A stretch of 63,639 bases of DNA, from NCBI GenBank assembly GCA_964396685.1, contig CAYNFS010000004.1:1-63639 (forward strand), read 5' to 3'. The notes beneath the pieces were generated by a model. The model was not told where the DNA came from, searched no databases, and worked only from the letters and a program-made list of their open reading frames with translations. Positions 1,606 to 45,906 of this stretch are shown here, piece by piece. A program made the position numbers and the translations under genes. Within the stretch, counting starts at the first letter, position 1. Each line of letters opens with the position of its first letter. Origin of the DNA: an uncultured Candidatus Saccharibacteria bacterium (GTDB lineage: Bacteria; Patescibacteriota; Doudnabacteria; UBA920; 2-01-FULL-46-14).

Positions 1606-1680
1606 ATCGTCAGCATCCTCCTTTTTTTCAGTTTGGAATTACTCAATCTCGGAATTGAGACGAGCAATTTAACTATCAAC

Positions 1681-1695
1681 TCCGCCAGAGGCGGA
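1681..1695. repeat. CCGCCAGAGGCGG-type palindromic element inside a longer imperfect inverted repeat (~1656-1735)
   Basis: TCCGCCAGAGGCGGA identical to half of the element at 45179; flanked by GCAATTTAA...TTAAATTGC. Confidence 0.65.
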
Positions 1696-1783
1696 CAGGC
1701 AAAACGCTTTGATGATTAAATTGCCAATCTCAATACAATAACGATATAATAGGTTAGCATATTTTAATGTTTATGGCAACCCA

Positions 1784-20954: not shown

Positions 20955-23129
20955 TTAACTTAAGTTTTTCTTTCTTAATAGTATAGCATTAAAAGCAACT
21001 ATTATGGTACTTAAAGACATAAAAAGCGCTGCCAGCGCCGGCTGCAGCAGAATTCCTTTGAAAGCAAGCACTCCGGCCGCCAAGGGCAACGCAACTACGT
21101 TGTACCCGGTTGCCCAGAACAGATTCTGAATCATCTTTGAATACGTCATCTCGGATAGCTTGATTATCTTCACGATGTCTCTAGGATCATTGCGCACAAG
21201 AATGATCCCGGCTGATTCAATGGCTACATTCGTCCCTGCGCCAATGGCAATGCCCAAATCTGCCTGGGTTAAAGCTGGCGCATCGTTTACCCCATCTCCC
21301 ACCATGGCCACTTTGAGTCCCCGGTTTTGCAATACTTTTACTTTGTCAGCTTTTTGCTCTGGCAATACCCTCGCAAAATATTCGTCAATCCCAAGTTCGG
21401 AAGCCACCCAAGCGGCTACCTCTTCCGAATCGCCGGTTATCATAGCAACTTCTAGGCCCATTTTTTTCAAACTGTTTATCGCCTCCCGCGACTCTTCGCG
21501 GATGATATCGGCAAGCGCAATTGCTCCGAGCAATTCTCCCTCGGCTATGACGTAGATTATAGTTTTTCCCCCTCTTAAGGTAAGAGGGGGCGAGGAGGCG
21601 TTATGTTGCGCGGCTTCTAATATCGCTTCTCCCCCAACCAAAATCTCTAAACCTTCCACGACGCCTCTTACCCCTTTCCCAGGAACCCTTTGAAAATCTT
21701 TAACTTCCAAAAGTGAGAGCCCTTGTTTTTTTGTTTCTTCAACCAATGCTTTGGCCACAAAATGTTCCGAAGGCGCATCCACCGATGCCGCCAATTGCAA
21801 AACTCTATCGTTTGTAATTTGTAATTTGGATTTCGGATTTAACATCACCTCGTCCACGCCATACTCTCCTTTAGTGAGCGTCCCTGTTTTGTCAAATAAA
21901 ACCACGCCAATCGTCCGGGCCGCTTCCAGGGCTAATCTTTGTTTGACCAGAAGTCCGTTTCGCGCCGCCATAGTCGTAGAAATAGAAGCAACCAGAGGAA
22001 CTGCCAGCCCCAAAGCGTGCGGACAGGCAATTACGAGAACTGCCACTAATCTTTCGGTGGCAAAGATTACGCCGGCCTTGGCCAAAAGCCAGGCGACAAA
22101 CGTGATGCTGCCAGTACCAAGGGCAACTAACGTCAGATAGAAAGCCGCCCGATCGGAAAGAATCTGCAGCTTTGACTTTGAAGCCTGCGCTTCCGCGACC
22201 AGCCTCATCACACCAGCCAAAAAAGTTTTCTCGCCAATTTTGGTTACTTGAATCTTGAGACTGCCGTCGCCGTTAATCGTGCCCGCTATTACTTCATTGC
22301 CGATTTGTTTTTTCACTGGCTTTGATTCTCCGGTAACCAAAGATTCATTAACTTCTGATTGGCCATCCACCACTTTCCCATCGGCCGCAATTTTCCCGCC
22401 AGGACGAACCAAAATCATGTCTCCGGTTTTAAGCTCGGCCAGCGGGACATTTCTTGTCTTCACTCCCTCTCCTTGTGAGGGGAGGGTTGGGGAAGGGTTA
22501 ATAATCAATTCCGCCGTATCCGGCAGCAATTTCGCAAGTTCTTTCAACGCTCCCTGCGCCCCTTGGACCGCCCGCATCTCCAGATAATGCCCCAAAAGCA
22601 TGATGGTAATTAACGTAGTCAATTCCCAAAACAGAGTATGGGGACTGCCACGCAAAGTTTCAAAAACGCTAAAAAGATATGCGGCGGTGATAGCAATCCC
22701 GATCAAAGTCATCATCCCCGGAAGGCGAGCTCGCAGTTCCCGCCATGCACCGGCCAAAAAAACCCATCCGCCATAGAAAAAAACAATTGAGCCAAAAATA
22801 AAAGATAAATATGGGGAACCAGAAAACACCGGTGCCTTCCAATCAAATAATTTTTGAGGCAGTTCCGAATAAAGCACCACCGGGATAGTCAAAACCAGAC
22901 TCACCCAGAATTTCCTAGCAAACATCGCCAGACTATGCCCCTCATGCTTGTCATGTCCCACTCCCTCCCTCTCCCCTTTGGGGAGAGGGGAGGGTGAGGG
23001 GATCAGGTTCATCCCGCACTCCGGGCACCGCCCCGGCTTATCCTGCTTGATTTCCGGATGCATCGGGCAGGAATAAATTGATCCTTTTTGTACTGGTGGA
23101 TGATTAAGCGTACTTTCGTTATGATTCAT
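20955..23129 (-). CDS. copB: copper-exporting P1B-type ATPase (CPH motif, CopB-like)
   Basis: YSCPMHP metal-binding domain, TGES, CPHALG, DKTGT, GDGVND. Confidence 0.9.
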   Translation of the reverse strand: MNHNESTLNHPPVQKGSIYSCPMHPEIKQDKPGRCPECGMNLIPSPSPLPKGEREGVGHDKHEGHSLAMFARKFWVSLVLTIPVVLYSELPQKLFDWKAPVFSGSPYLSFIFGSIVFFYGGWVFLAGAWRELRARLPGMMTLIGIAITAAYLFSVFETLRGSPHTLFWELTTLITIMLLGHYLEMRAVQGAQGALKELAKLLPDTAELIINPSPTLPSQGEGVKTRNVPLAELKTGDMILVRPGGKIAADGKVVDGQSEVNESLVTGESKPVKKQIGNEVIAGTINGDGSLKIQVTKIGEKTFLAGVMRLVAEAQASKSKLQILSDRAAFYLTLVALGTGSITFVAWLLAKAGVIFATERLVAVLVIACPHALGLAVPLVASISTTMAARNGLLVKQRLALEAARTIGVVLFDKTGTLTKGEYGVDEVMLNPKSKLQITNDRVLQLAASVDAPSEHFVAKALVEETKKQGLSLLEVKDFQRVPGKGVRGVVEGLEILVGGEAILEAAQHNASSPPLTLRGGKTIIYVIAEGELLGAIALADIIREESREAINSLKKMGLEVAMITGDSEEVAAWVASELGIDEYFARVLPEQKADKVKVLQNRGLKVAMVGDGVNDAPALTQADLGIAIGAGTNVAIESAGIILVRNDPRDIVKIIKLSEMTYSKMIQNLFWATGYNVVALPLAAGVLAFKGILLQPALAALFMSLSTIIVAFNAILLRKKNLS
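21568..21590. repeat. C/G-rich hairpin in frame in the Cu-ATPase
   Basis: CCCCCTCTTA-AGG-TAAGAGGGGG; encodes PPLTLRGG. Confidence 0.7.
22462..22499. repeat. C/G-rich hairpin in frame in the Cu-ATPase
   Basis: encodes NPSPTLPSQGEGV. Confidence 0.8.
22960..23001. repeat. C/G-rich hairpin in frame in the Cu-ATPase
   Basis: encodes PSPSPLPKGEREGV. Confidence 0.8.
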
Positions 23130-23294
23130 AGACGTAGTTTTTAAGGATTCGCCGCAAGACGCCAGTAACCAGTCAGCCGGCGACAACATGCACGGCGGAA
23201 GCCCTGATAATTATTAGAATCCGGCAATTTCATTCATCAAATTAAGTTTTGGCAGTTACCAAAGCGCCTATTATTGCATTTCTGACTGACTTCA

Positions 23295-29907: not shown

Positions 29908-30049
29908 TTATAGCACGAGTTTTCAGGGAGTCAAGTCCCAAAATGGTCCATTCGGCTATTTGACAATTTTGCCGAAATCTGCAATAATCGGGCGTTGCAA
30001 CTTGATTTCAAACTCAGATTTTTGCGCCGATTTTTCGGCTCAAAAATTT
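29908..30049. repeat. intact A+B intergenic block (copy 2)
   Basis: contiguous version of the blocks at 27904-27960 and 28566-28659. Confidence 0.9.
29960..29988 (+). promoter_or_regulatory. sigma70-like promoter
   Basis: TTGACA-N17-AATAAT upstream of the 30191 operon. Confidence 0.6.
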
Positions 30050-30190
30050 GGGCTGTGAGTATCTCGCAGTTCCAACGCTCTTTGGCAGTATCAAAGAGGA
30101 ATTTCAATTTCAACTAGGATCACTTGCTCCTCTTTTTGCATTGGTCACAAAAACCAGTGGAAGGAGTGGGTGGAAAGGAAAAGGTAGAAT

Positions 30191-31552
30191 ATGGCACATG
30201 AAATTAGCCTCATAGTTGACCCGCCGCAATTAGTAGCTGGCGGAAAATTCTGTGAGGTACGGCTGAAGGCAACTGTGGTGAAGAAGACCAAAAGCGGCGC
30301 AGGAGAAAAAACTGTCGCCGCCAAAGGCACTCTTCAATTCCGCAAAGACGACCAACCAATAATGGAGGGGCCAGTCGATGATAACGGAGTTTTCACTCAT
30401 CGCCTGGAAATCCCTCTCCAAAACGACCAGCAGTCAGTGCGCTTTGATGCAACTTTCCGGTCCCAAGCCGGCGAAGTTGCACACGCACCCTACCAACGCA
30501 TCACCATTCCACCCACCCATCGCGATCGCAGGGACAAAGATCGCAGGCAGGATTGGGAGAGAGTGAGCTACAAGCTCGAACTCAGACACTCTCTCAATCC
30601 GAACGGCGCTGACGAGTACACACTCACCGCAGACGTAACGCTCACTGCGCACGAGCGACGCGGCGAGAAAGACACTCGCGATGTCGCCGTCCCTGGCGCA
30701 ACCATCAAAATTTCCCTCAACGGCAAGGTAGCCAGCACCGGTATCACAGACGGCGCTGGAAAAACCCTTTTCCACTCGGTGCTCAGGGCCAGGGAGGTAG
30801 AGGAAACCTTCTTCATGGTCGCAACGGCCGAAATTGATGGTAAAACCGTTACCGCATCAAGCACCGAAACCGTGAAGGTACCGGCGAAAAGGAGAACGAA
30901 CCAAGAACACAGCTACCATAAGCTCTCCCTCCATGTAATGCGTCAACAGGCCGGCGAGAATCAGTATCGCTACCTGCTCAAAGCCACCTTCCTCAAAGTG
31001 GAGCGGAGAGGCGATGAGACGAAAGAGCATCCTGTTAGGGACACCCCTGTTGTCTTCACGGTCAACTCGCAGGAGCTCTCTTACGGCGACAAGTTGCCAA
31101 CAACCGATGCGACCGGCGAAGCTTTTCTGCAGACCGGAGTCTACGACTCGCTCGACCAGGAACAAGCGATGTATTTTCTGGCCAAGACGGTCGTGGTTGA
31201 CAAGCCGGTGGTATCGCAGACTTTTATTGACAAGCTGCCGGCCCTAGCAAAACCAGTGCCTGCAGTCGCTGCCAATCTCTGGCTCGTCTGCCGCGGCAAC
31301 GCAGCCGAAGTAACCCTCTTTGACAAAGACGGGAAACCCTGCGCCGCGCCGCTCACCATCATCCCGCACGTGACCAATGTAGCAATTCATGACAATTCTG
31401 GGAAAGAAATCACCGCCTGGCCCGTGAATGTTCCGGCCAGCGTTTCGGTGTTTTTCTTCTTCCACGAGGAGGCCAAGAGATTCTCCGCCACTTTCGCCAG
31501 CGGCGGAGCCTCAAAGACCGGGATTATCTACCCGGAGAAAAGGAGCAAGTAA
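30191..31552 (+). CDS. hypothetical protein with 3-4 tandem Ig-like beta domains
   Basis: ~110-aa beta-rich repeats each with a (T/V)D..G motif, charged linkers, no signal peptide; AAGG-type RBS. Confidence 0.7.
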   Translation: MAHEISLIVDPPQLVAGGKFCEVRLKATVVKKTKSGAGEKTVAAKGTLQFRKDDQPIMEGPVDDNGVFTHRLEIPLQNDQQSVRFDATFRSQAGEVAHAPYQRITIPPTHRDRRDKDRRQDWERVSYKLELRHSLNPNGADEYTLTADVTLTAHERRGEKDTRDVAVPGATIKISLNGKVASTGITDGAGKTLFHSVLRAREVEETFFMVATAEIDGKTVTASSTETVKVPAKRRTNQEHSYHKLSLHVMRQQAGENQYRYLLKATFLKVERRGDETKEHPVRDTPVVFTVNSQELSYGDKLPTTDATGEAFLQTGVYDSLDQEQAMYFLAKTVVVDKPVVSQTFIDKLPALAKPVPAVAANLWLVCRGNAAEVTLFDKDGKPCAAPLTIIPHVTNVAIHDNSGKEITAWPVNVPASVSVFFFFHEEAKRFSATFASGGASKTGIIYPEKRSK

Positions 31553-31553
31553 C

Positions 31554-34196
31554 ATGGCGAACGCACAAACCTCCTGGTTCCGGGAGATCCTTTCGGTGAT
31601 CCTGGGCCATCCCATTGGCCAGTTTTTGAGCAATGCGCTCAAGGATCTATTTCAAAAAGCCGGGGAACATGTGACCGAGAAGGAGATCAAGGTCATCATG
31701 ACCAAGATCTTCGGGCCGGGTACGGAGGATGAACGCCGGTTCACCCTGGCTATGAGTTTTCTTGATCCCAACGAACAAAAACGGATCTGGGAGATGCTCG
31801 GCCAGCTTGAATCGCACCAAAGTGATTACTTCCGGATCACTGTAATGCAAGAAAAACCGGAAGACATCGCCAAAGTACTGCGTGAAGTTTACGCAGTCAT
31901 GGACGATAAGGCCTGGCAAAACGCGATCCAAGTCATGAATTACGACTTGGAGCACATTCAGGACAAATGGACGAGAGTTCAGAACTGGATCGGCGCCAAC
32001 TGGCGCACTCACGTTTGGCCAGCCCTTCGCGCCTTTGGCTGGTGGCGGGCAATCGGCCTTGTCGCTCTGGTGTGGTTTCTTGACCGTACGACCCCATCGC
32101 AAATCGGCCAAGCGATTGCCACAACAGCCAAAGCGATCTGGACCCAAGTCACGGCTAGTGGTGGTGGCCTCGGCAAAGGACTGGGTTGGCTCGGAACTAA
32201 ATTCGGCGCAGGACTCAAAGCCACATTCTCCGGTCTCGGAAAGGGAATTTCGGCAACCGCCAAGGGAACAGCAGAAGCAAGCGGCTGGCTCGCTAGCATA
32301 GTGGCGTGGCTTGTCAGAAACATCCTGGCTGTGACACTGGGCCTTCTGGGTCTTGTCGCCGCTCTCGGTGTGCTTTTTCTGGCATCCCCCACATTCCGCC
32401 AGCAGGTATTCACGCTTGGCCCGTCGGTACTGGTGTGTGGTGTTATACTCACGGCAATAACCATTGCTTGGGTGACCCATCATCATTACCATGCGGGCTG
32501 GGTTGTCACCCTGCTCGGCATGTACTGGCTGATCCTACTCGGCACCCTGTGGCCCGGGTTCTTAGCGAATCTGGCCACGATCGGCTTACCCCTCTTCGCG
32601 CTCCTGGCGGCTGTTCTCCTAATCCTTTCCGGATGGATGACGACAGTTCGCTGGTGGCGCCGCATTGCCTACGCTTTGACGACTATCTTGCTCGGCGTCT
32701 TGCTCCTCCCGCCTGTTTACCGGTGGGTGGCGGGGACGAGCTTCGGGCAAATCAGCGGCCGGTATTTCAACGCCGTTGGCGGCCAGAAGTTCACCCAGTG
32801 GGTACGCGCCATCGTCCCTCGGGAGATTGATCGCGGTCTTACATTGGGTGAAGTCACCGAGGACGCCAGCCTGTACGTGCAGGAGGCCGGCAAGCTCAAG
32901 CCCAAGGTGCTTGTCGAAACTCTCGAGGTCAAAACGAAAGAGCCGATTATAATCCTTTGGGGAGTAAAGATCGGCGAAATTGAGAAGGTTGAAGAGAAGA
33001 CCATAGAGAAACGGCAGGTACTCAAGGCCGGGACGAAGGTCAAGGTCTGGCAGGCACGGCCGAACCTGGTGTTTGACGACGGCGAGAACGACGAGCCGGT
33101 CCTGAAGGTGAAAATCGCTGACGAAAGCGGCGAATTCATCACCAGCAAGGAAGAGCTCTATGTTGTCGCCCGCAAGGTTCGCCTCACAAGCCCGCTTCCT
33201 GCCAAGGCCGACATGCGGCCCACCCCGTGGTACCACCACCTCATCTATCTCTTGGCCATGATCGTCGGAATGTGGATGATCATGAACTTGCCGCCAAAGG
33301 AGAAGCTGGGACGGAGGATCACTTGGGTGGCAATGACGGTCGTCATGCTGCCAATGGCGGTCTATATGTTAATCAACATGATAGACGCCAAGGCAGCACC
33401 AATTCCAACCCGCACGACTACGGTCACCACGACCCGCATCGGCCAGCCAGTAAGCGGCGTCATCGGGCCGCCGGAGTATGTGGCTCTGGTGGACAAGTAT
33501 CTCGCCCAGTACCCGACCGTGCCGCGGAATCTGGCGCTGGCGATGATTCAGGTTGAATCTAGCTGGGATCCGCGCGCGGTCTCGCCGCGAGGGGCGCAGG
33601 GCCTCATGCAGTTGATGCCGGATACGGCTAGGCTGCTTGGGGTCAGCGACCCCTTCGACCCAGACCAGAACATCCGCGGAGGGATCCAGTACCTCGCGCA
33701 GCAGCTTGCTGATTTCTCCTCTACGGAGCTGGCGCTGGTAGCCTATCACTGGGGACCAGAGAACGTCCGGAAACACCCGGGCAAGACCTGGGAGCAAATT
33801 CTGGCAAGCTCGGACGAACCCAGACCTGGACCACTCACGATCGACTACGTCCGGGATGTAATTGCGTTGGCTCGCGGTCAAGCTCCCGGCCAACCCGGTG
33901 TGCAGATGGCCGTAACCCCCCCACCTCCTCCGCCACCCAAGGAGTTTGAGATATCCTTCGGGCTTGCGGAAGGTACCACCTACGAGACTGTGGTCGTAAC
34001 CTGCACCACGGACTCAAAGGTGGAAACGGCCGAAATGACAAAAAAACGGCCGTACTGGGGATTCAAAATCACCCCGGCCACGCGCTGTGTGGCGCAGGAT
34101 GAAGCCGGAAGGGAAATCAAGTTGGTTGACTCAAAAGGTCAATTACTTCCAACCGGATTTCAACCCAAACCCAACCTCGTGGCCTGGGTGCAATAA
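31554..34196 (+). CDS. polytopic membrane protein with C-terminal lytic transglycosylase (SLT) domain
   Basis: start MANAQ after AAGGAG; many TM helices; 'MIQVESS...AVSPRGAQGLMQLMP.TA...DP..NI.GG..YL...LALVAYHWG'. Confidence 0.85.
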   Translation: MANAQTSWFREILSVILGHPIGQFLSNALKDLFQKAGEHVTEKEIKVIMTKIFGPGTEDERRFTLAMSFLDPNEQKRIWEMLGQLESHQSDYFRITVMQEKPEDIAKVLREVYAVMDDKAWQNAIQVMNYDLEHIQDKWTRVQNWIGANWRTHVWPALRAFGWWRAIGLVALVWFLDRTTPSQIGQAIATTAKAIWTQVTASGGGLGKGLGWLGTKFGAGLKATFSGLGKGISATAKGTAEASGWLASIVAWLVRNILAVTLGLLGLVAALGVLFLASPTFRQQVFTLGPSVLVCGVILTAITIAWVTHHHYHAGWVVTLLGMYWLILLGTLWPGFLANLATIGLPLFALLAAVLLILSGWMTTVRWWRRIAYALTTILLGVLLLPPVYRWVAGTSFGQISGRYFNAVGGQKFTQWVRAIVPREIDRGLTLGEVTEDASLYVQEAGKLKPKVLVETLEVKTKEPIIILWGVKIGEIEKVEEKTIEKRQVLKAGTKVKVWQARPNLVFDDGENDEPVLKVKIADESGEFITSKEELYVVARKVRLTSPLPAKADMRPTPWYHHLIYLLAMIVGMWMIMNLPPKEKLGRRITWVAMTVVMLPMAVYMLINMIDAKAAPIPTRTTTVTTTRIGQPVSGVIGPPEYVALVDKYLAQYPTVPRNLALAMIQVESSWDPRAVSPRGAQGLMQLMPDTARLLGVSDPFDPDQNIRGGIQYLAQQLADFSSTELALVAYHWGPENVRKHPGKTWEQILASSDEPRPGPLTIDYVRDVIALARGQAPGQPGVQMAVTPPPPPPPKEFEISFGLAEGTTYETVVVTCTTDSKVETAEMTKKRPYWGFKITPATRCVAQDEAGREIKLVDSKGQLLPTGFQPKPNLVAWVQ

Positions 34197-34730: not shown

Positions 34731-34803
34731 CTCACCCTTCCCTCTCTTTGGAAAAGAGAGGGGATTCCTCTTCTTTTTCCAAAGATGAGGTGGGGAGGAG
34801 TTC
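34731..34803. repeat. C/G-rich hairpins upstream of DUF559
   Basis: CCCTCTCTTTGGAAAAGAGAGGG...TCTTCTTTTTCCAAAGATGAGGTGGGGAGGAG. Confidence 0.7.
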
Positions 34804-43524: not shown

Positions 43525-45906
43525 TCAATCAAGCTCGCCTGTGGATAACACAAAATCAGGAACCTCTTGCAGGTATTTTATAAAAACTTGGTCATACTCG
43601 GTCAAGACGCGGGGATCCAAAATATAAATACTCTTGGACTCAACGCTTCCGGCTAAAAATCTGGCAAGCAAAGTATGGAAGATATGCACGGTACGGGGTA
43701 GGACGTAGTCAATAAATGAGGTCTTAACCCCCGGGGCCTCAAAAGGCAAACGCCAAATGACAAGGTTTCGGGCTTCAGGATAATGTTTGAAATGCCGCAA
43801 CGTCTCGTTTGTCGAAAGCAAAAGCGTGAAATCGCTGTCGACATTCTTTAACCTGCGGCTAGTGATAATTCTGTTGTTTGGCGAAGGATTCCTCCGCAAG
43901 ATGTCAGAAACCTCTGAAAGCTTTGCTTTCGATGGTAAAATCACGATTGTGCTGCCTGGCAGTGTAGACAAAAGCTTTTGAAATCCCTCTGTGGTAAAAT
44001 TTTTACTGAAAATTTTCACGGCAATTTTTTGGAACGGAACTCCAACGTTGACCTGCTCAAATCGAAAACTGGAAATTCCCAAAATCTTGTCAAAGTAACT
44101 TATTGAGGACTGAGGCAGTTGGGTATCAATGATTGTCGTGCTCGCAAATTTCTTTATAAACTCCTGCCAAACTTTTTCCAGCTTTTTTGGCATGGCGTTC
44201 AACGCCACAAACTTGGAACCAAACCGCAGCCAGTAATATTTATCGGGCTGGCCTTCCAAAAAAATCTCGTAAATTAAATTTTTGAGCGAAACAATCTTGT
44301 GGCGCAGGGCCCCTTCTTCCAGTGCTGACTCTGCGTTCAAAAAATCTTCCTGCCCTAGCAGATATTCCGCGAATGTCTCAAGCTTGCTTATTAATTTTTG
44401 CGCCGGATGAAATAATTTCTGGAAACGCTCCTGTTCTTTTTCTGTATCATCAACTACCAAACTTTCGGCAAATTCTCCTTGGCTTTTCAAATACACAAGA
44501 TGCAAAATTCCAAAAAACAAGTCAAGCTCATTGGCAACTCTTTCCGCTTCCTGCGGAAAACGCGCGTAAACGATTTCTATGGCGTTTCTGATTTTTCGCA
44601 AATCCCAACTTTCAGTCAAAGTCTCTGCCAGGCCGTCCTCAATTTTGGCGAGATCAAAAAGCAGTACCGGAAATTCAGAAAAACCAACTTGCCAATCGGA
44701 AACAAGCGTAAACAAAGATGACAATGTTAAAAAATAGGTCTGTTTTTTGTTAAATTCCAAAGACTGGAAATAAATGCAATGGTGACGGGAACAAATTTGA
44801 GGATCGACTCGTAGTAAATGCAAAAAAGCCCTTTCTTCATAAGCCCATTTGATTTGCGATAAATCCGTTGATCCTGGCTCAAATTCCCGAAGAATCGCCA
44901 GTTTTATAAGGATTTTCCAAATCTCATCCTGCTGTTTCTCTGCTCCTTTGATCCTCTCATAACGGACTGCGCAGAGGGCGTTCTTTGGATCAACAACTTG
45001 CTGATTTTGGGGAACAAGATCAAGGTCAGTCGGATGAGATACTCCCACAATTTTCGGACCGTTCTGCAAGGCCAAAAACGCCAGCAACTCCTGGTGTTTG
45101 CTGAAAGACAAAGGCAAGGTCATTATCGTTTTGTCCGGCCAAATGTTTGATAAAGAGTTGAACAACTCCTCCCCTCTTTCCGCCAGAGGCGGATCCGCCT
45201 TCGGCGGAAAGGTAAGAGAGGGTGGGGGTGAGTAATGAACATCCCCTCTCTTTCTCCCCCGGACTCCGGAGGAGATTGAAGCGGGGGCGGACAAATCCAA
45301 AATCAAATCCCTAAACTTCAAATTTGATTTCACAAGATACTCTCTAATCTCCTTCTGCAATTCTAAATCGAAACTCAAAAACTCATTTAGAATCCCGGCC
45401 AGCACTAAACCGGAATTTTTGGCATCAGTCAACGCGCGGTGCGATAGGCCTTCTTCTATCCCGAATTCTTCCGCCAAATACTCCAATGAATGAGCCGGCA
45501 GAAGAGGCAAAAAAGTCAGAGCCAGCTCCAGGGTGTCGACGTGTTGATTTTTTAAAACTAGCCCTTGATTTTTAAGATATTCGAGATCAAACAAAATATT
45601 TTGACCGAGTATGCTCTCGTTTCCGAAAAACTTCTGCAAATCTGTTTTGACATCTTTCCAAACAGGCGCAGTCTTTAATTCCTCCAGAGCAATCCCCGTC
45701 AGACTTAAAGCCGAAGCTGACGGCTCAATTTCGGGATTGACAAGCGAACTGAAAGACTTGCCAAAATGGACTTTGATCTTTTTTTCTTTCTGATCAAAAC
45801 TTAATTCAGCTTCAACTGCCCCCGCTTCCATAATCCGCCCCTCTTTCATATCAAGATGCGTGGTTTCAAGATCAAGGGCGATGAATTTTTTGGAATAACT
45901 CGACAT
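43525..45906 (-). CDS. DEDDh 3'-5' exonuclease fused to a degenerate DinG-like domain
   Basis: LDLETT, GQNILFDL, HRALTDA; C-terminal 'RLPF...LD.R'; no intact Walker A seen. Confidence 0.8.
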   Translation of the reverse strand: MSSYSKKFIALDLETTHLDMKEGRIMEAGAVEAELSFDQKEKKIKVHFGKSFSSLVNPEIEPSASALSLTGIALEELKTAPVWKDVKTDLQKFFGNESILGQNILFDLEYLKNQGLVLKNQHVDTLELALTFLPLLPAHSLEYLAEEFGIEEGLSHRALTDAKNSGLVLAGILNEFLSFDLELQKEIREYLVKSNLKFRDLILDLSAPASISSGVRGRKRGDVHYSPPPSLTFPPKADPPLAERGEELFNSLSNIWPDKTIMTLPLSFSKHQELLAFLALQNGPKIVGVSHPTDLDLVPQNQQVVDPKNALCAVRYERIKGAEKQQDEIWKILIKLAILREFEPGSTDLSQIKWAYEERAFLHLLRVDPQICSRHHCIYFQSLEFNKKQTYFLTLSSLFTLVSDWQVGFSEFPVLLFDLAKIEDGLAETLTESWDLRKIRNAIEIVYARFPQEAERVANELDLFFGILHLVYLKSQGEFAESLVVDDTEKEQERFQKLFHPAQKLISKLETFAEYLLGQEDFLNAESALEEGALRHKIVSLKNLIYEIFLEGQPDKYYWLRFGSKFVALNAMPKKLEKVWQEFIKKFASTTIIDTQLPQSSISYFDKILGISSFRFEQVNVGVPFQKIAVKIFSKNFTTEGFQKLLSTLPGSTIVILPSKAKLSEVSDILRRNPSPNNRIITSRRLKNVDSDFTLLLSTNETLRHFKHYPEARNLVIWRLPFEAPGVKTSFIDYVLPRTVHIFHTLLARFLAGSVESKSIYILDPRVLTEYDQVFIKYLQEVPDFVLSTGELD
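45165..45274. repeat. nested palindromic elements in frame in the exonuclease-DinG gene
   Basis: TCCGCCAGAGGCGGATCCGCCTTCGGCGGA (45179-45208) sits in the loop of a C/G-rich hairpin. Confidence 0.85.

Follow-up and report, generated by a model that had tools for sequence, protein, structure and literature searches.

A 63,639-nt stretch of contig CAYNFS010000004.1 (assembly GCA_964396685.1), from an uncultured Candidatus Saccharibacteria bacterium placed by GTDB in the Doudnabacteria, is called the window here. It carries a 30-nt double hairpin inside a gene encoding an RNase_T exonuclease and DinG-like protein. This element is very probably an inserted member of a mobile family of mini-repeats and, judging from the sequences collected, the family is large and apparently undescribed. 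The explanation that we favour on balance is that of a non-autonomous mini-element built of two modules, for which mobilisation by a GIY-YIG nuclease is proposed. The nuclease step, taken by itself, is tentative.

The 793-aa host protein has an RNase_T exonuclease domain at its N-terminus (Pfam), and a profile of 39 relatives matches PDB 8zef, described as '3'-5' exonuclease DinG', in two stretches. The AlphaFold2 model of the protein has a mean confidence (pLDDT) of 85.6 and a sole long low-confidence stretch, residues 209-245, with values below 50; the element encodes residues 233-243 within it. An earlier inspection of the letters without database searches, which we call the sequence-only reading, had described a 30-nt double palindrome translated in frame as PPKADPPLAE and had placed it in the linker between the exonuclease and DinG parts. 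The sequence, coordinates and frame agree with ours, and the Pfam domain, the profile match and the low-confidence stretch support the location. Across the alignment of the 39 orthologues this linker is 65 to 97 residues long. In one of them (P0014) a tandem duplication of about 26 residues (KKFQKPIDWPDRAILSLPLSFNKQQE, twice) was observed.

On the coding strand the 30 nt read TT/T CCG CCG AAG GCG GAT CCG CCT CTG GCG GA/A, that is F-PPKADPPLA-E (slashes mark insertion points here and below). The element splits a TTA codon of the host gene and the reading frame is maintained; without the 30 nt the gene reads ACC TTA AGA GGG GAG (T-L-R-G-E). All six frames of the element are open as read from the sequence, and the frame decides whether its peptide is SAEGGSASGG or PPKADPPLAE. 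Since it is 30 nt long and open in every frame, it can be read through as ten extra residues, which are probably tolerated rather than useful. An internal translation start after the GA-rich arm of the surrounding hairpin was rejected because no start codon is conserved among the orthologues.

Chance does not account for this pattern, since the window has three occurrences of the motif CCGCC-N3/4-GGCGG where 0.17 would be expected, the exact 15-mer of module 1 occurs twice and the fold of the region 45150-45290 has z = -5.3 compared with shuffles. Moreover, a covariance model of the family gave 58.9 bits (E = 6e-12) for the doublet at 45179-45208, and its only other match in the window was a solitary module with 21.3 bits.

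That the 30 nt were inserted is seen from the hairpin that they interrupt. On the gene strand this outer hairpin reads CCCTCTCTTACCTT-(30 nt)-AAGAGGGG. In the nearest orthologue, in locus L002, the same place is occupied by CCCCTCTTA-TCT-TAAGAGGGG with no insert, and the flanks align base for base; in hairpin notation the empty site is CCCCTCTTA-TCT-T/AAGAGGGG, with the junction CTT/AAG. When the junction of the window is rebuilt without the 30 nt (CTCTTACCTTAAGAGGG), the window has a single further exact match to it (21570-21586, minus strand; 0.01 expected). This match lies in the P-type heavy-metal ATPase gene (20955-23210, minus strand) that holds the hairpins at 21570-21588 and 22967-22989, and the peptide of the site at 21570 recurs in only one (P0187, PSLTLRGS) of about 26 ATPase orthologues displayed. 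By comparison of filled and empty sequences, the window copy is shown as a precise insertion, without target duplication, at TT/AA close to the tip of a CT/GA hairpin that was there before it, within the disordered linker that joins the exonuclease and DinG-like domains.

L002 and four more orthologues all have a CT/GA hairpin at this place in the linker, with different loops, although the linker peptide is otherwise unalignable. Together with the exact copy in the ATPase gene, these orthologue hairpins indicate that the outer hairpin is itself a small repeat residing in coding sequence. In the L124 orthologue (46% identical) a single TCCGCCTTAGGCGGA, acquired independently, stands at the tip of the equivalent linker hairpin. 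The sequence-only reading had spoken of a repeat nested inside a repeat inside a gene; the recurrence of the junction in the ATPase gene, and the orthologue-linker comparison that it had suggested, with the empty L002 hairpin, bear this out. It had also described the enclosing hairpin as C/G-rich with the element in its loop. The hairpin is real, but its arms are CT-rich and GA-rich, and the insert lies at the junction of the loop and the 3' arm, not strictly in the loop.

Small CT/GA hairpins (CCCTCT...AGAGGG), a second repeat family, were observed three times in the window (21570-21588, 22967-22989 and 34740-34762; 0.06 expected). These copies lie in variable linkers of coding sequences and are translated into peptides of the P-L-T-L-R-G type; such a peptide is also present in the ATPase orthologue P0187 and in the DinG-like orthologue of L002.

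Table 1. Position of the double-hairpin element, its host gene and related repeats in the window.
Feature	Position	Strand	Basis and remarks
Hairpin module 1, TCCGCC-AGA-GGCGGA (6-bp stem, 3-nt loop), TCCGCCAGAGGCGGA	45179..45193	+	Direct reading; exact second copy at 1681; covariance model match
Hairpin module 2, TCCGCC-TTC-GGCGGA, TCCGCCTTCGGCGGA	45194..45208	+	Abuts module 1, both forming the 30-nt double-hairpin element
Insertion junctions, TT/element/AA	45177..45210	.	Flanking bases are the target's own; no target-site duplication
Host gene, RNase_T exonuclease and DinG-like protein, 793 aa	43525..45906	-	Pfam, profile, AlphaFold2 model
Outer CT/GA hairpin, encoding P-L-T-L-R-G if uninterrupted	45165..45229	-	Inverted repeat; equivalents in orthologue linkers; empty paralogue at 21570
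Further 9-bp perfect hairpin, AAGAGAGGG / CCCTCTCTT	45214..45252	.	Inverted repeat, fold; CT/GA motif in common
Uninterrupted outer-hairpin paralogue, CCCTCTTA-CCT-TAAGAGGG, peptide PPLTLRGG	21570..21588	-	Within the P-type heavy-metal ATPase gene
Related CT/GA hairpin, variable linker after metal-binding domain of the same ATPase	22967..22989	-	Within the gene at 20955-23210
Solitary copy of module 1	1681..1695	+	Exact 15-mer; divergent intergenic region; 21.3 bits
26-nt imperfect inverted repeat around the solitary module	1654..1734	.	Arms 1654-1679 / 1709-1734

The family was collected by a search for the exact first 15-mer in GTDB genomes, one for each species, which gave at least 118 loci. 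Its consensus is TCCGCC-NNN-GGCGGA, a 15-nt hairpin module with a 6-bp stem and a 3-nt loop that occurs in pairs. Among the matches listed, a second 15-nt hairpin directly follows the 15-mer in 47 of 131 occurrences and precedes it in 6, where about 4 would be expected by chance. The alignment used for covariation holds copies selected for pairing, the unbiased figure being the 47 downstream against the 6 upstream; in it the second stem has changes on both sides at five of its six pairs (for example TCAGCC/GGCTGA, TCTGCC/GGCAGA, TGAGCC/GGCTCA and TCCCCC/GGGGGA). The covariation of this stem argues for two separate hairpins and not one long hairpin.

The hosts, among the matches listed, cover about ten phyla, and about half of them are Patescibacteria of many classes. 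Hosts outside the Candidate Phyla Radiation (CPR) include Omnitrophota (one a single-cell genome), Kiritimatiellae/Verrucomicrobiota, Ignavibacteria, Dehalococcoidia, Zixibacteria, Binatia, a Desulfotomaculaceae metagenome-assembled genome (MAG) and a closed long-read chromosome of 1.77 Mb. In the four groundwater metagenomes that hold the window, 190-490 different contigs per run match positions 45173-45214 at 90% or more, and the summed depth of the element matches is 7,000-65,000 compared with 3-19 for the flanks. Similarity among these foreign contigs mostly begins at 45177 and stops at 45210. The motif was not found in the searchable literature, and in Rfam no family came near its threshold, the best match being BjrC80 with 26.6 bits against a gathering threshold of 80. 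A phage vector was dropped as a candidate, since a 21-mer of the element matched only 2 IMG/VR contigs and INPHARED phages and PLSDB plasmids gave no full match.

Some loci have more elaborate arrangements. In L070 (4463-4490) yet another hairpin is found within the loop of the second (TCCGCC-TATAAAGTATAGGT-GGCGGA), giving modules within modules. In L117 (2903-2952) a module, a second module, 5 nt and an inverted module all stand in the D-loop of a tRNA-Pro. Heptamer-like tandem repeats (for example GAATTAA, CAGTTGT, TGCAAAA, TCAATTA, CGTCACT and AGGATTT) surround the 15-mer in L021, L042, L047, L059, L061, L063, L083 and L100.

The sites occupied by the family resemble each other. The bases at -1 and -2 are T in about 75% of the copies; on the other side, +1 is A or G, +2 is A in 70% and +3 is A in 55%, so that the usual insertion context is TT/RAA and a junction of T-rich and A-rich sequence is common to most sites. 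Pairs of empty and filled sites (L002 and the window, L129 and L112, and the restored tRNAs described below) have no target duplication, and these empty sites show that the TT/RAA flanks are bases of the target. About 18 of the 44 doublets among the matches listed are held by long open frames; real genes with in-frame copies are those encoding TopA, class II RNR, AspRS, Mfd, a FemAB-like protein, ValRS and PheT, and all of these but the FemAB-like one are counted as essential. In most genic copies the peptide is S-A-E/K/Q-G-G-S-A-S-G-G, with Phe (TTT) before it and Asn, Lys or Glu after it. The PheT of a Campbellbacteria MAG (L058, 4441-6930) has two doublets, SARGGSAFGG near the N-terminus and SAGGGSASGG in the middle of the protein.

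The ValRS site, SG[YF]F/NPD, gives the clearest evidence of movement. It is conserved among 120 relatives and is empty in 116 of them, including the closest relatives of L112 (L129, 79% identical, reads GGT TAC TTT/AAT CCT). It contains an identical 30-mer in L112 and L127, which are just 56% identical to each other, a variant of the element in L089 (Saccharibacteria) and, in L128, an element of opposite orientation placed one base to the left, giving APEAHPPWTD. These filled states among empty relatives require that the site was hit independently at least twice, and probably three or more times. Doublets were also seen directly after ruvB in L026 at 5339 and L109 at 3400, a Patescibacteria and an Ignavibacteria locus, and adjoining a TsaD-like open reading frame (ORF) in two unrelated loci (L021 at 903 and L059 at 6149); both may be additional hot spots. 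Fourteen genic copies have one orientation and four the other, and L058 and L128 show that both are tolerated. An orientation bias was looked for, and no link of element orientation with the GC skew or the coding strand of the locus was found.

Stand-alone genes for GIY-YIG proteins (PF01541, E = 1e-12 to 1e-13, about 75-130 aa) are found 24-200 nt from the 15-mer in 7 of the 118 loci listed, which had been chosen solely for the 15-mer. The reverse sample, 80 metagenome loci encoding relatives of this nuclease, has 35 CCGCC-N3-GGCGG hairpins in 147 kb. The density of GC-rich hairpins (6-bp stem, 3-nt loop) is 4.4 per kb in the 100 nt upstream of the nuclease gene and 2.6 per kb in the 100 nt downstream, compared with 0.15-0.19 per kb more than 500 nt away, a concentration of about 20-fold beside the gene. 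A tRNA is present no more than 300 nt away from 61 of the 80 nuclease genes. In the usual order a broken tRNA copy with modules comes first, followed by the nuclease gene, an intact tRNA and a second broken copy. In the tRNA clusters with nuclease genes (L146 800-1500, L149, L191 640-1160, L177 1-460 and L025 1776-2517), broken copies of the neighbouring tRNA carry doublets in the anticodon loop and the T-loop. Identical doublets flank the nuclease gene of L177, and L025 has tandem copies of the unit with a period of 363 nt. This association suggests that the GIY-YIG protein is a candidate for the mobilising enzyme. A literature search brought up no paper that connects GIY-YIG genes with bacterial tRNA genes and palindromic repeats. 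A master element was looked for by comparing all ORFs up to 3 kb from doublets with one another, and no family was common to more than two loci; the GIY-YIG genes were missed there because most are below 80 aa or adjoin single modules.

Copies resembling tRNA-Arg (GCTCAGCTGGATAGAG...AACCAGAAGGTCGGGA) were observed in L148 (1270 and 1341), L151 (1264), L169 (1264), L194 (942) and L209 (1270 and 1591). They have a single TCCGCC-NNN-GGCGGA of variable loop in place of the end of the D-stem, the 5' anticodon stem and the anticodon, and the right-hand junction is again before the AA of the anticodon loop.

The sequence-only reading had proposed that the element targets hairpin loops, and had noted half of it in the loop of an inverted repeat at 1681. 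The latter is correct: the exact 15-mer occupies the 29-nt loop of a 26-nt inverted repeat (81% complementary), and the DNA fold of this site has z = -5.3. The general proposal is partly supported: it holds for the two window sites and for the tRNA gene copies, with L124 in its favour, but loop targeting is not detectable in most other copies. Stems of at least 6 bp span 4 of 41 doublets among the matches listed (10%), compared with 4.0% of 8048 control TT/RA sites (p = 0.08), and in the same matches flank complementarity beyond TT/AA is 2.17 pairs compared with 2.32 in re-paired controls. Most copies in protein genes have a surrounding stem of at most 4 bp, and with the present data short stems are indistinguishable from chance; the ValRS site can form a 4-bp stem around a loop containing TTT/AAT.

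Beside the GIY-YIG genes, at least 13 of 16 doublets stand in D-, anticodon- or T-loops of tRNA gene copies. The anticodon-loop insertion in tRNA-Lys(UUU) is exactly at CTCCCTTTT/AAGGAG, and other insertion points are GGTTC/GATTCC in the T-loop and AGCT/CAGT and AGCTC/AGTGG in the D-loop. Removal of the modules restores a tRNA recognised by ARAGORN, namely tRNA-Lys in L146 and L149 (insertion at tRNA positions 36 and 56) and tRNA-Pro in L117 (positions 13 and 18). When the insert alone was removed from L008, L034, L038 and L117, ARAGORN found no tRNA, the copies being truncated or having further insertions. The target in the window, a CT-rich arm, TT/AA and a GA-rich arm, resembles the anticodon arm of tRNA-Lys. 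Loop targeting in general is plausible, and is proven just for the tRNA copies and this window.

In the mechanism that we propose, a small GIY-YIG nuclease would make a break, the enzyme being supplied in trans by a cassette that is associated with tRNA genes at another place in the genome. The break would fall at unstacked or single-stranded sites such as hairpin loops and junctions of a T-run and an A-run, for example TTTT/AA of the tRNA-Lys anticodon loop. The module pair would then be copied from another copy by short-homology repair or template switching. In its widest form this proposal takes the modules and doublets to be non-autonomous partners of undescribed mobile cassettes in about ten phyla, in which GIY-YIG nucleases of about 80 aa home into tRNA loops and the doublets spill over to any TT/AA or loop-like site, essential genes included; this is possible, though we hold it with considerable doubt.

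It is rather unlikely that the modules are moved instead by a Y1 HUH transposase, either RAYT or a protein similar to that of IS200/IS605, as is the case for repetitive extragenic palindromes (REP) and REPINs. Y1 HUH transposases recognise DNA hairpins on single strands and insert without target duplication, and the present elements are equally hairpin-based, very small and free of target duplication. Moreover, a PF01797 Y1_Tnp gene is directly upstream of the orthologous exonuclease/DinG-like gene in L121 (2-244) and L124 (1-413), the latter being the locus with a single module in its linker. These two copies are 82% identical to each other, and the corresponding position in the window is taken by recA. 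However, neither the window nor the 118 element-bearing loci listed yielded a Y1_Tnp homologue, and there is no room for guide sequences beside the hairpins. Palindrome-associated elements derived from IS200/IS605 insert 3' of a fixed tetra- or pentanucleotide. The 5' flank of the present family is T-rich, but the constraint on the 3' flank is as strong (TT and RAA), and IS200/IS605 elements constrain the 5' flank alone. The element also lacks the GTAG or CGTC tag that defines the REP super-families (PMC3733652), as all 43 aligned copies start with TCCG and end with CGGA.

Another reading, unlikely and even more so than the Y1 transposase, is that the double hairpin is a structure selected for its use to the host and not a selfish element, perhaps a signal in RNA or DNA that pauses translation between domains, binds a protein or stabilises the mRNA. 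The compensatory changes that keep the second stem, the strong fold of the region 45150-45290 and the CT/GA hairpin at one position in all orthologues examined would fit with it. Nevertheless the same 30-mer is found in unrelated genes, 5' leaders, intergenic DNA, heptamer repeats and tRNA pseudogenes, it is absent from the nearest orthologues both here and at the ValRS site, and the Rfam search offers no family for it. Nor is it terminator-like: an intrinsic terminator was ruled out because a 5' T-run and a 3' A-run are present on both strands and the element is within an open reading frame.

It is very improbable that the palindromes were made on the spot by template switching or hairpin-primed synthesis in a repetitive linker. 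Quasi-palindrome correction is an established mutational route and the linker is rich in CT/GA inverted repeats, but the insert has no sequence in common with these repeats, and identical or near-identical 30-mers in dozens of unrelated genomes and hundreds of contigs contradict such an origin. An artefact of sequencing or assembly (an adapter, or a chimeric join at a shared repeat) can practically be dismissed: the Logan contigs of the host do break inside the element, a high-copy 30-mer, but a second assembly (GCA_016205105.1, 99.985% identical) has the same insert, contigs from the four groundwater runs cover both junctions and overlap from left and right inside the element, the reading frame and homology of the host gene run on across it, and copies with covarying variants come from many laboratories, a single-cell genome and closed long-read chromosomes.

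Several points weigh against an insertion by a nuclease-driven mobile family. One doublet and one single module in 63.6 kb do not make a heavily colonised genome. The 59% aa identity of the nearest orthologue (L002) gives no age for the insertion, and no empty allele of the window site was found in the four groundwater runs, for which contigs and not reads were searched. The family statistics rest on the matches listed for the 15-mer, which selects one loop variant, and they are biased on both counts. Moreover tblastn found no GIY-YIG homologue in the window, and we know of no biochemical activity of these GIY-YIG proteins of about 80 aa. The association with the nuclease could be indirect, the cassettes creating dispensable, hairpin-rich tRNA copies in which a loop-seeking element accumulates.

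Among known small repeats the family behaves like small dispersed repeats (SDR), Rickettsia palindromic elements (RPE) and the mitochondrial GC clusters and double-hairpin elements (DHE). It fails the defining features of REPs, miniature inverted-repeat transposable elements (MITE) and RPEs, and differs from all the systems compared in its host range and its association with nuclease and tRNA genes. Elhai et al. (2008, Genome Res 18:1484) are said to have described SDR1-8 of Nostoc and relatives, of 21-27 nt, and SDRs were reportedly found in a cyanobacterial subgroup only; the present family is in about ten phyla and commonest in CPR bacteria. SDRs are not known to occur in frame within essential genes, next to a nuclease gene or inside the loops of tRNAs. 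The likeness to SDRs, drawn from their description and not from sequence, lies in the very small size (15-nt modules and 30-nt doublets here), in a hairpin with compensatory changes (subject to the selection for pairing noted above) and in nesting within other repeats, within themselves and in heptamer repeats, as seen in the window, L070, L117 and the heptamer loci. SDR elements of Nostoc are cited in PMC3116915 and PMC4390886, and SDR5 inserts between nucleotides 3 and 4 of HIP1, a precise insertion inside a short palindrome (PMC4390886).

RPEs are palindromic repeats found in frame in unrelated housekeeping genes and translated as an extra peptide (PMC10969869). In-frame insertion with read-through is common to both families, but RPEs are about 100-150 bp long and limited to Rickettsia, and the conserved peptide specific to them has about 30-50 aa, in contrast to the 30 nt, 10 aa and cross-phylum distribution of the present element. 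For the GC clusters of mitochondria (yeast GC42) and the DHEs of Allomyces, mobility has been inferred from presence and absence and the mechanism is unknown (PMC4478555). They have GC-rich palindromic modules in AT-rich surroundings, two hairpins, and merging and shuffling, and they lie in genes and rRNA/tRNA regions; they are organellar, however, and of different sequence, and yeast GC clusters have AG or ACT direct repeats resembling target duplications (PMC4478555), of which none are seen in the present family. REPs and REPINs are also short GC-rich hairpins, often paired and non-autonomous, and their enzyme RAYT is supplied in trans from a single-copy gene (PMC3116915). REPs, however, are extragenic (PMC3733652) whereas the present element is often inside genes, and its neighbouring gene encodes a GIY-YIG nuclease and not a Y1 transposase. 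MITEs have terminal inverted repeats, a target-site duplication and a size of 50-500 bp, unlike an element of 30 nt without duplication. The small nucleases share with GIY-YIG homing endonucleases the catalytic domain and the seat in tRNA genes, and have a weak similarity, below the cut-off, to the N-terminal part of group I intron endonucleases (TIGR01453). They differ in having about 80 aa, no DNA-binding domain and no surrounding intron, broken tRNA copies and modules flanking them instead. tRNA genes are a classic target of homing.

If they are mobile, the 30-nt doublets and 15-nt modules would be among the smallest mobile DNA elements in any genome. The family thrives in CPR bacteria, the most streamlined bacteria known, where purging of selfish DNA would be expected. 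Its in-frame insertion can explain short Gly/Ser/Ala-rich or Pro-rich insertions in alignments of CPR proteins. Were the cassette proposal true, no mobile elements with an identifiable enzyme would be smaller, and 10-aa insertions would arise from them repeatedly in the housekeeping proteins of CPR bacteria. How such tiny palindromic repeats move is a long-standing question for SDRs, mitochondrial GC clusters and double-hairpin elements, and the link of GIY-YIG genes to tRNA loops makes it testable. In practice the element breaks short-read assemblies, since Logan contigs end within it.

The solitary module of the window is followed by CAGGCAAAACGC at 1696-1708, and in the Woesebacteria locus L010 (2088-2100) the same module is followed by CAGGCAAAATGC. 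H1+CAGG is found in 6 of about 85 solitary matches, which suggests a further combination of modules. Elsewhere in the window, positions 30001-34000 have a G+C content of 0.53-0.59, compared with about 0.45 in other parts.

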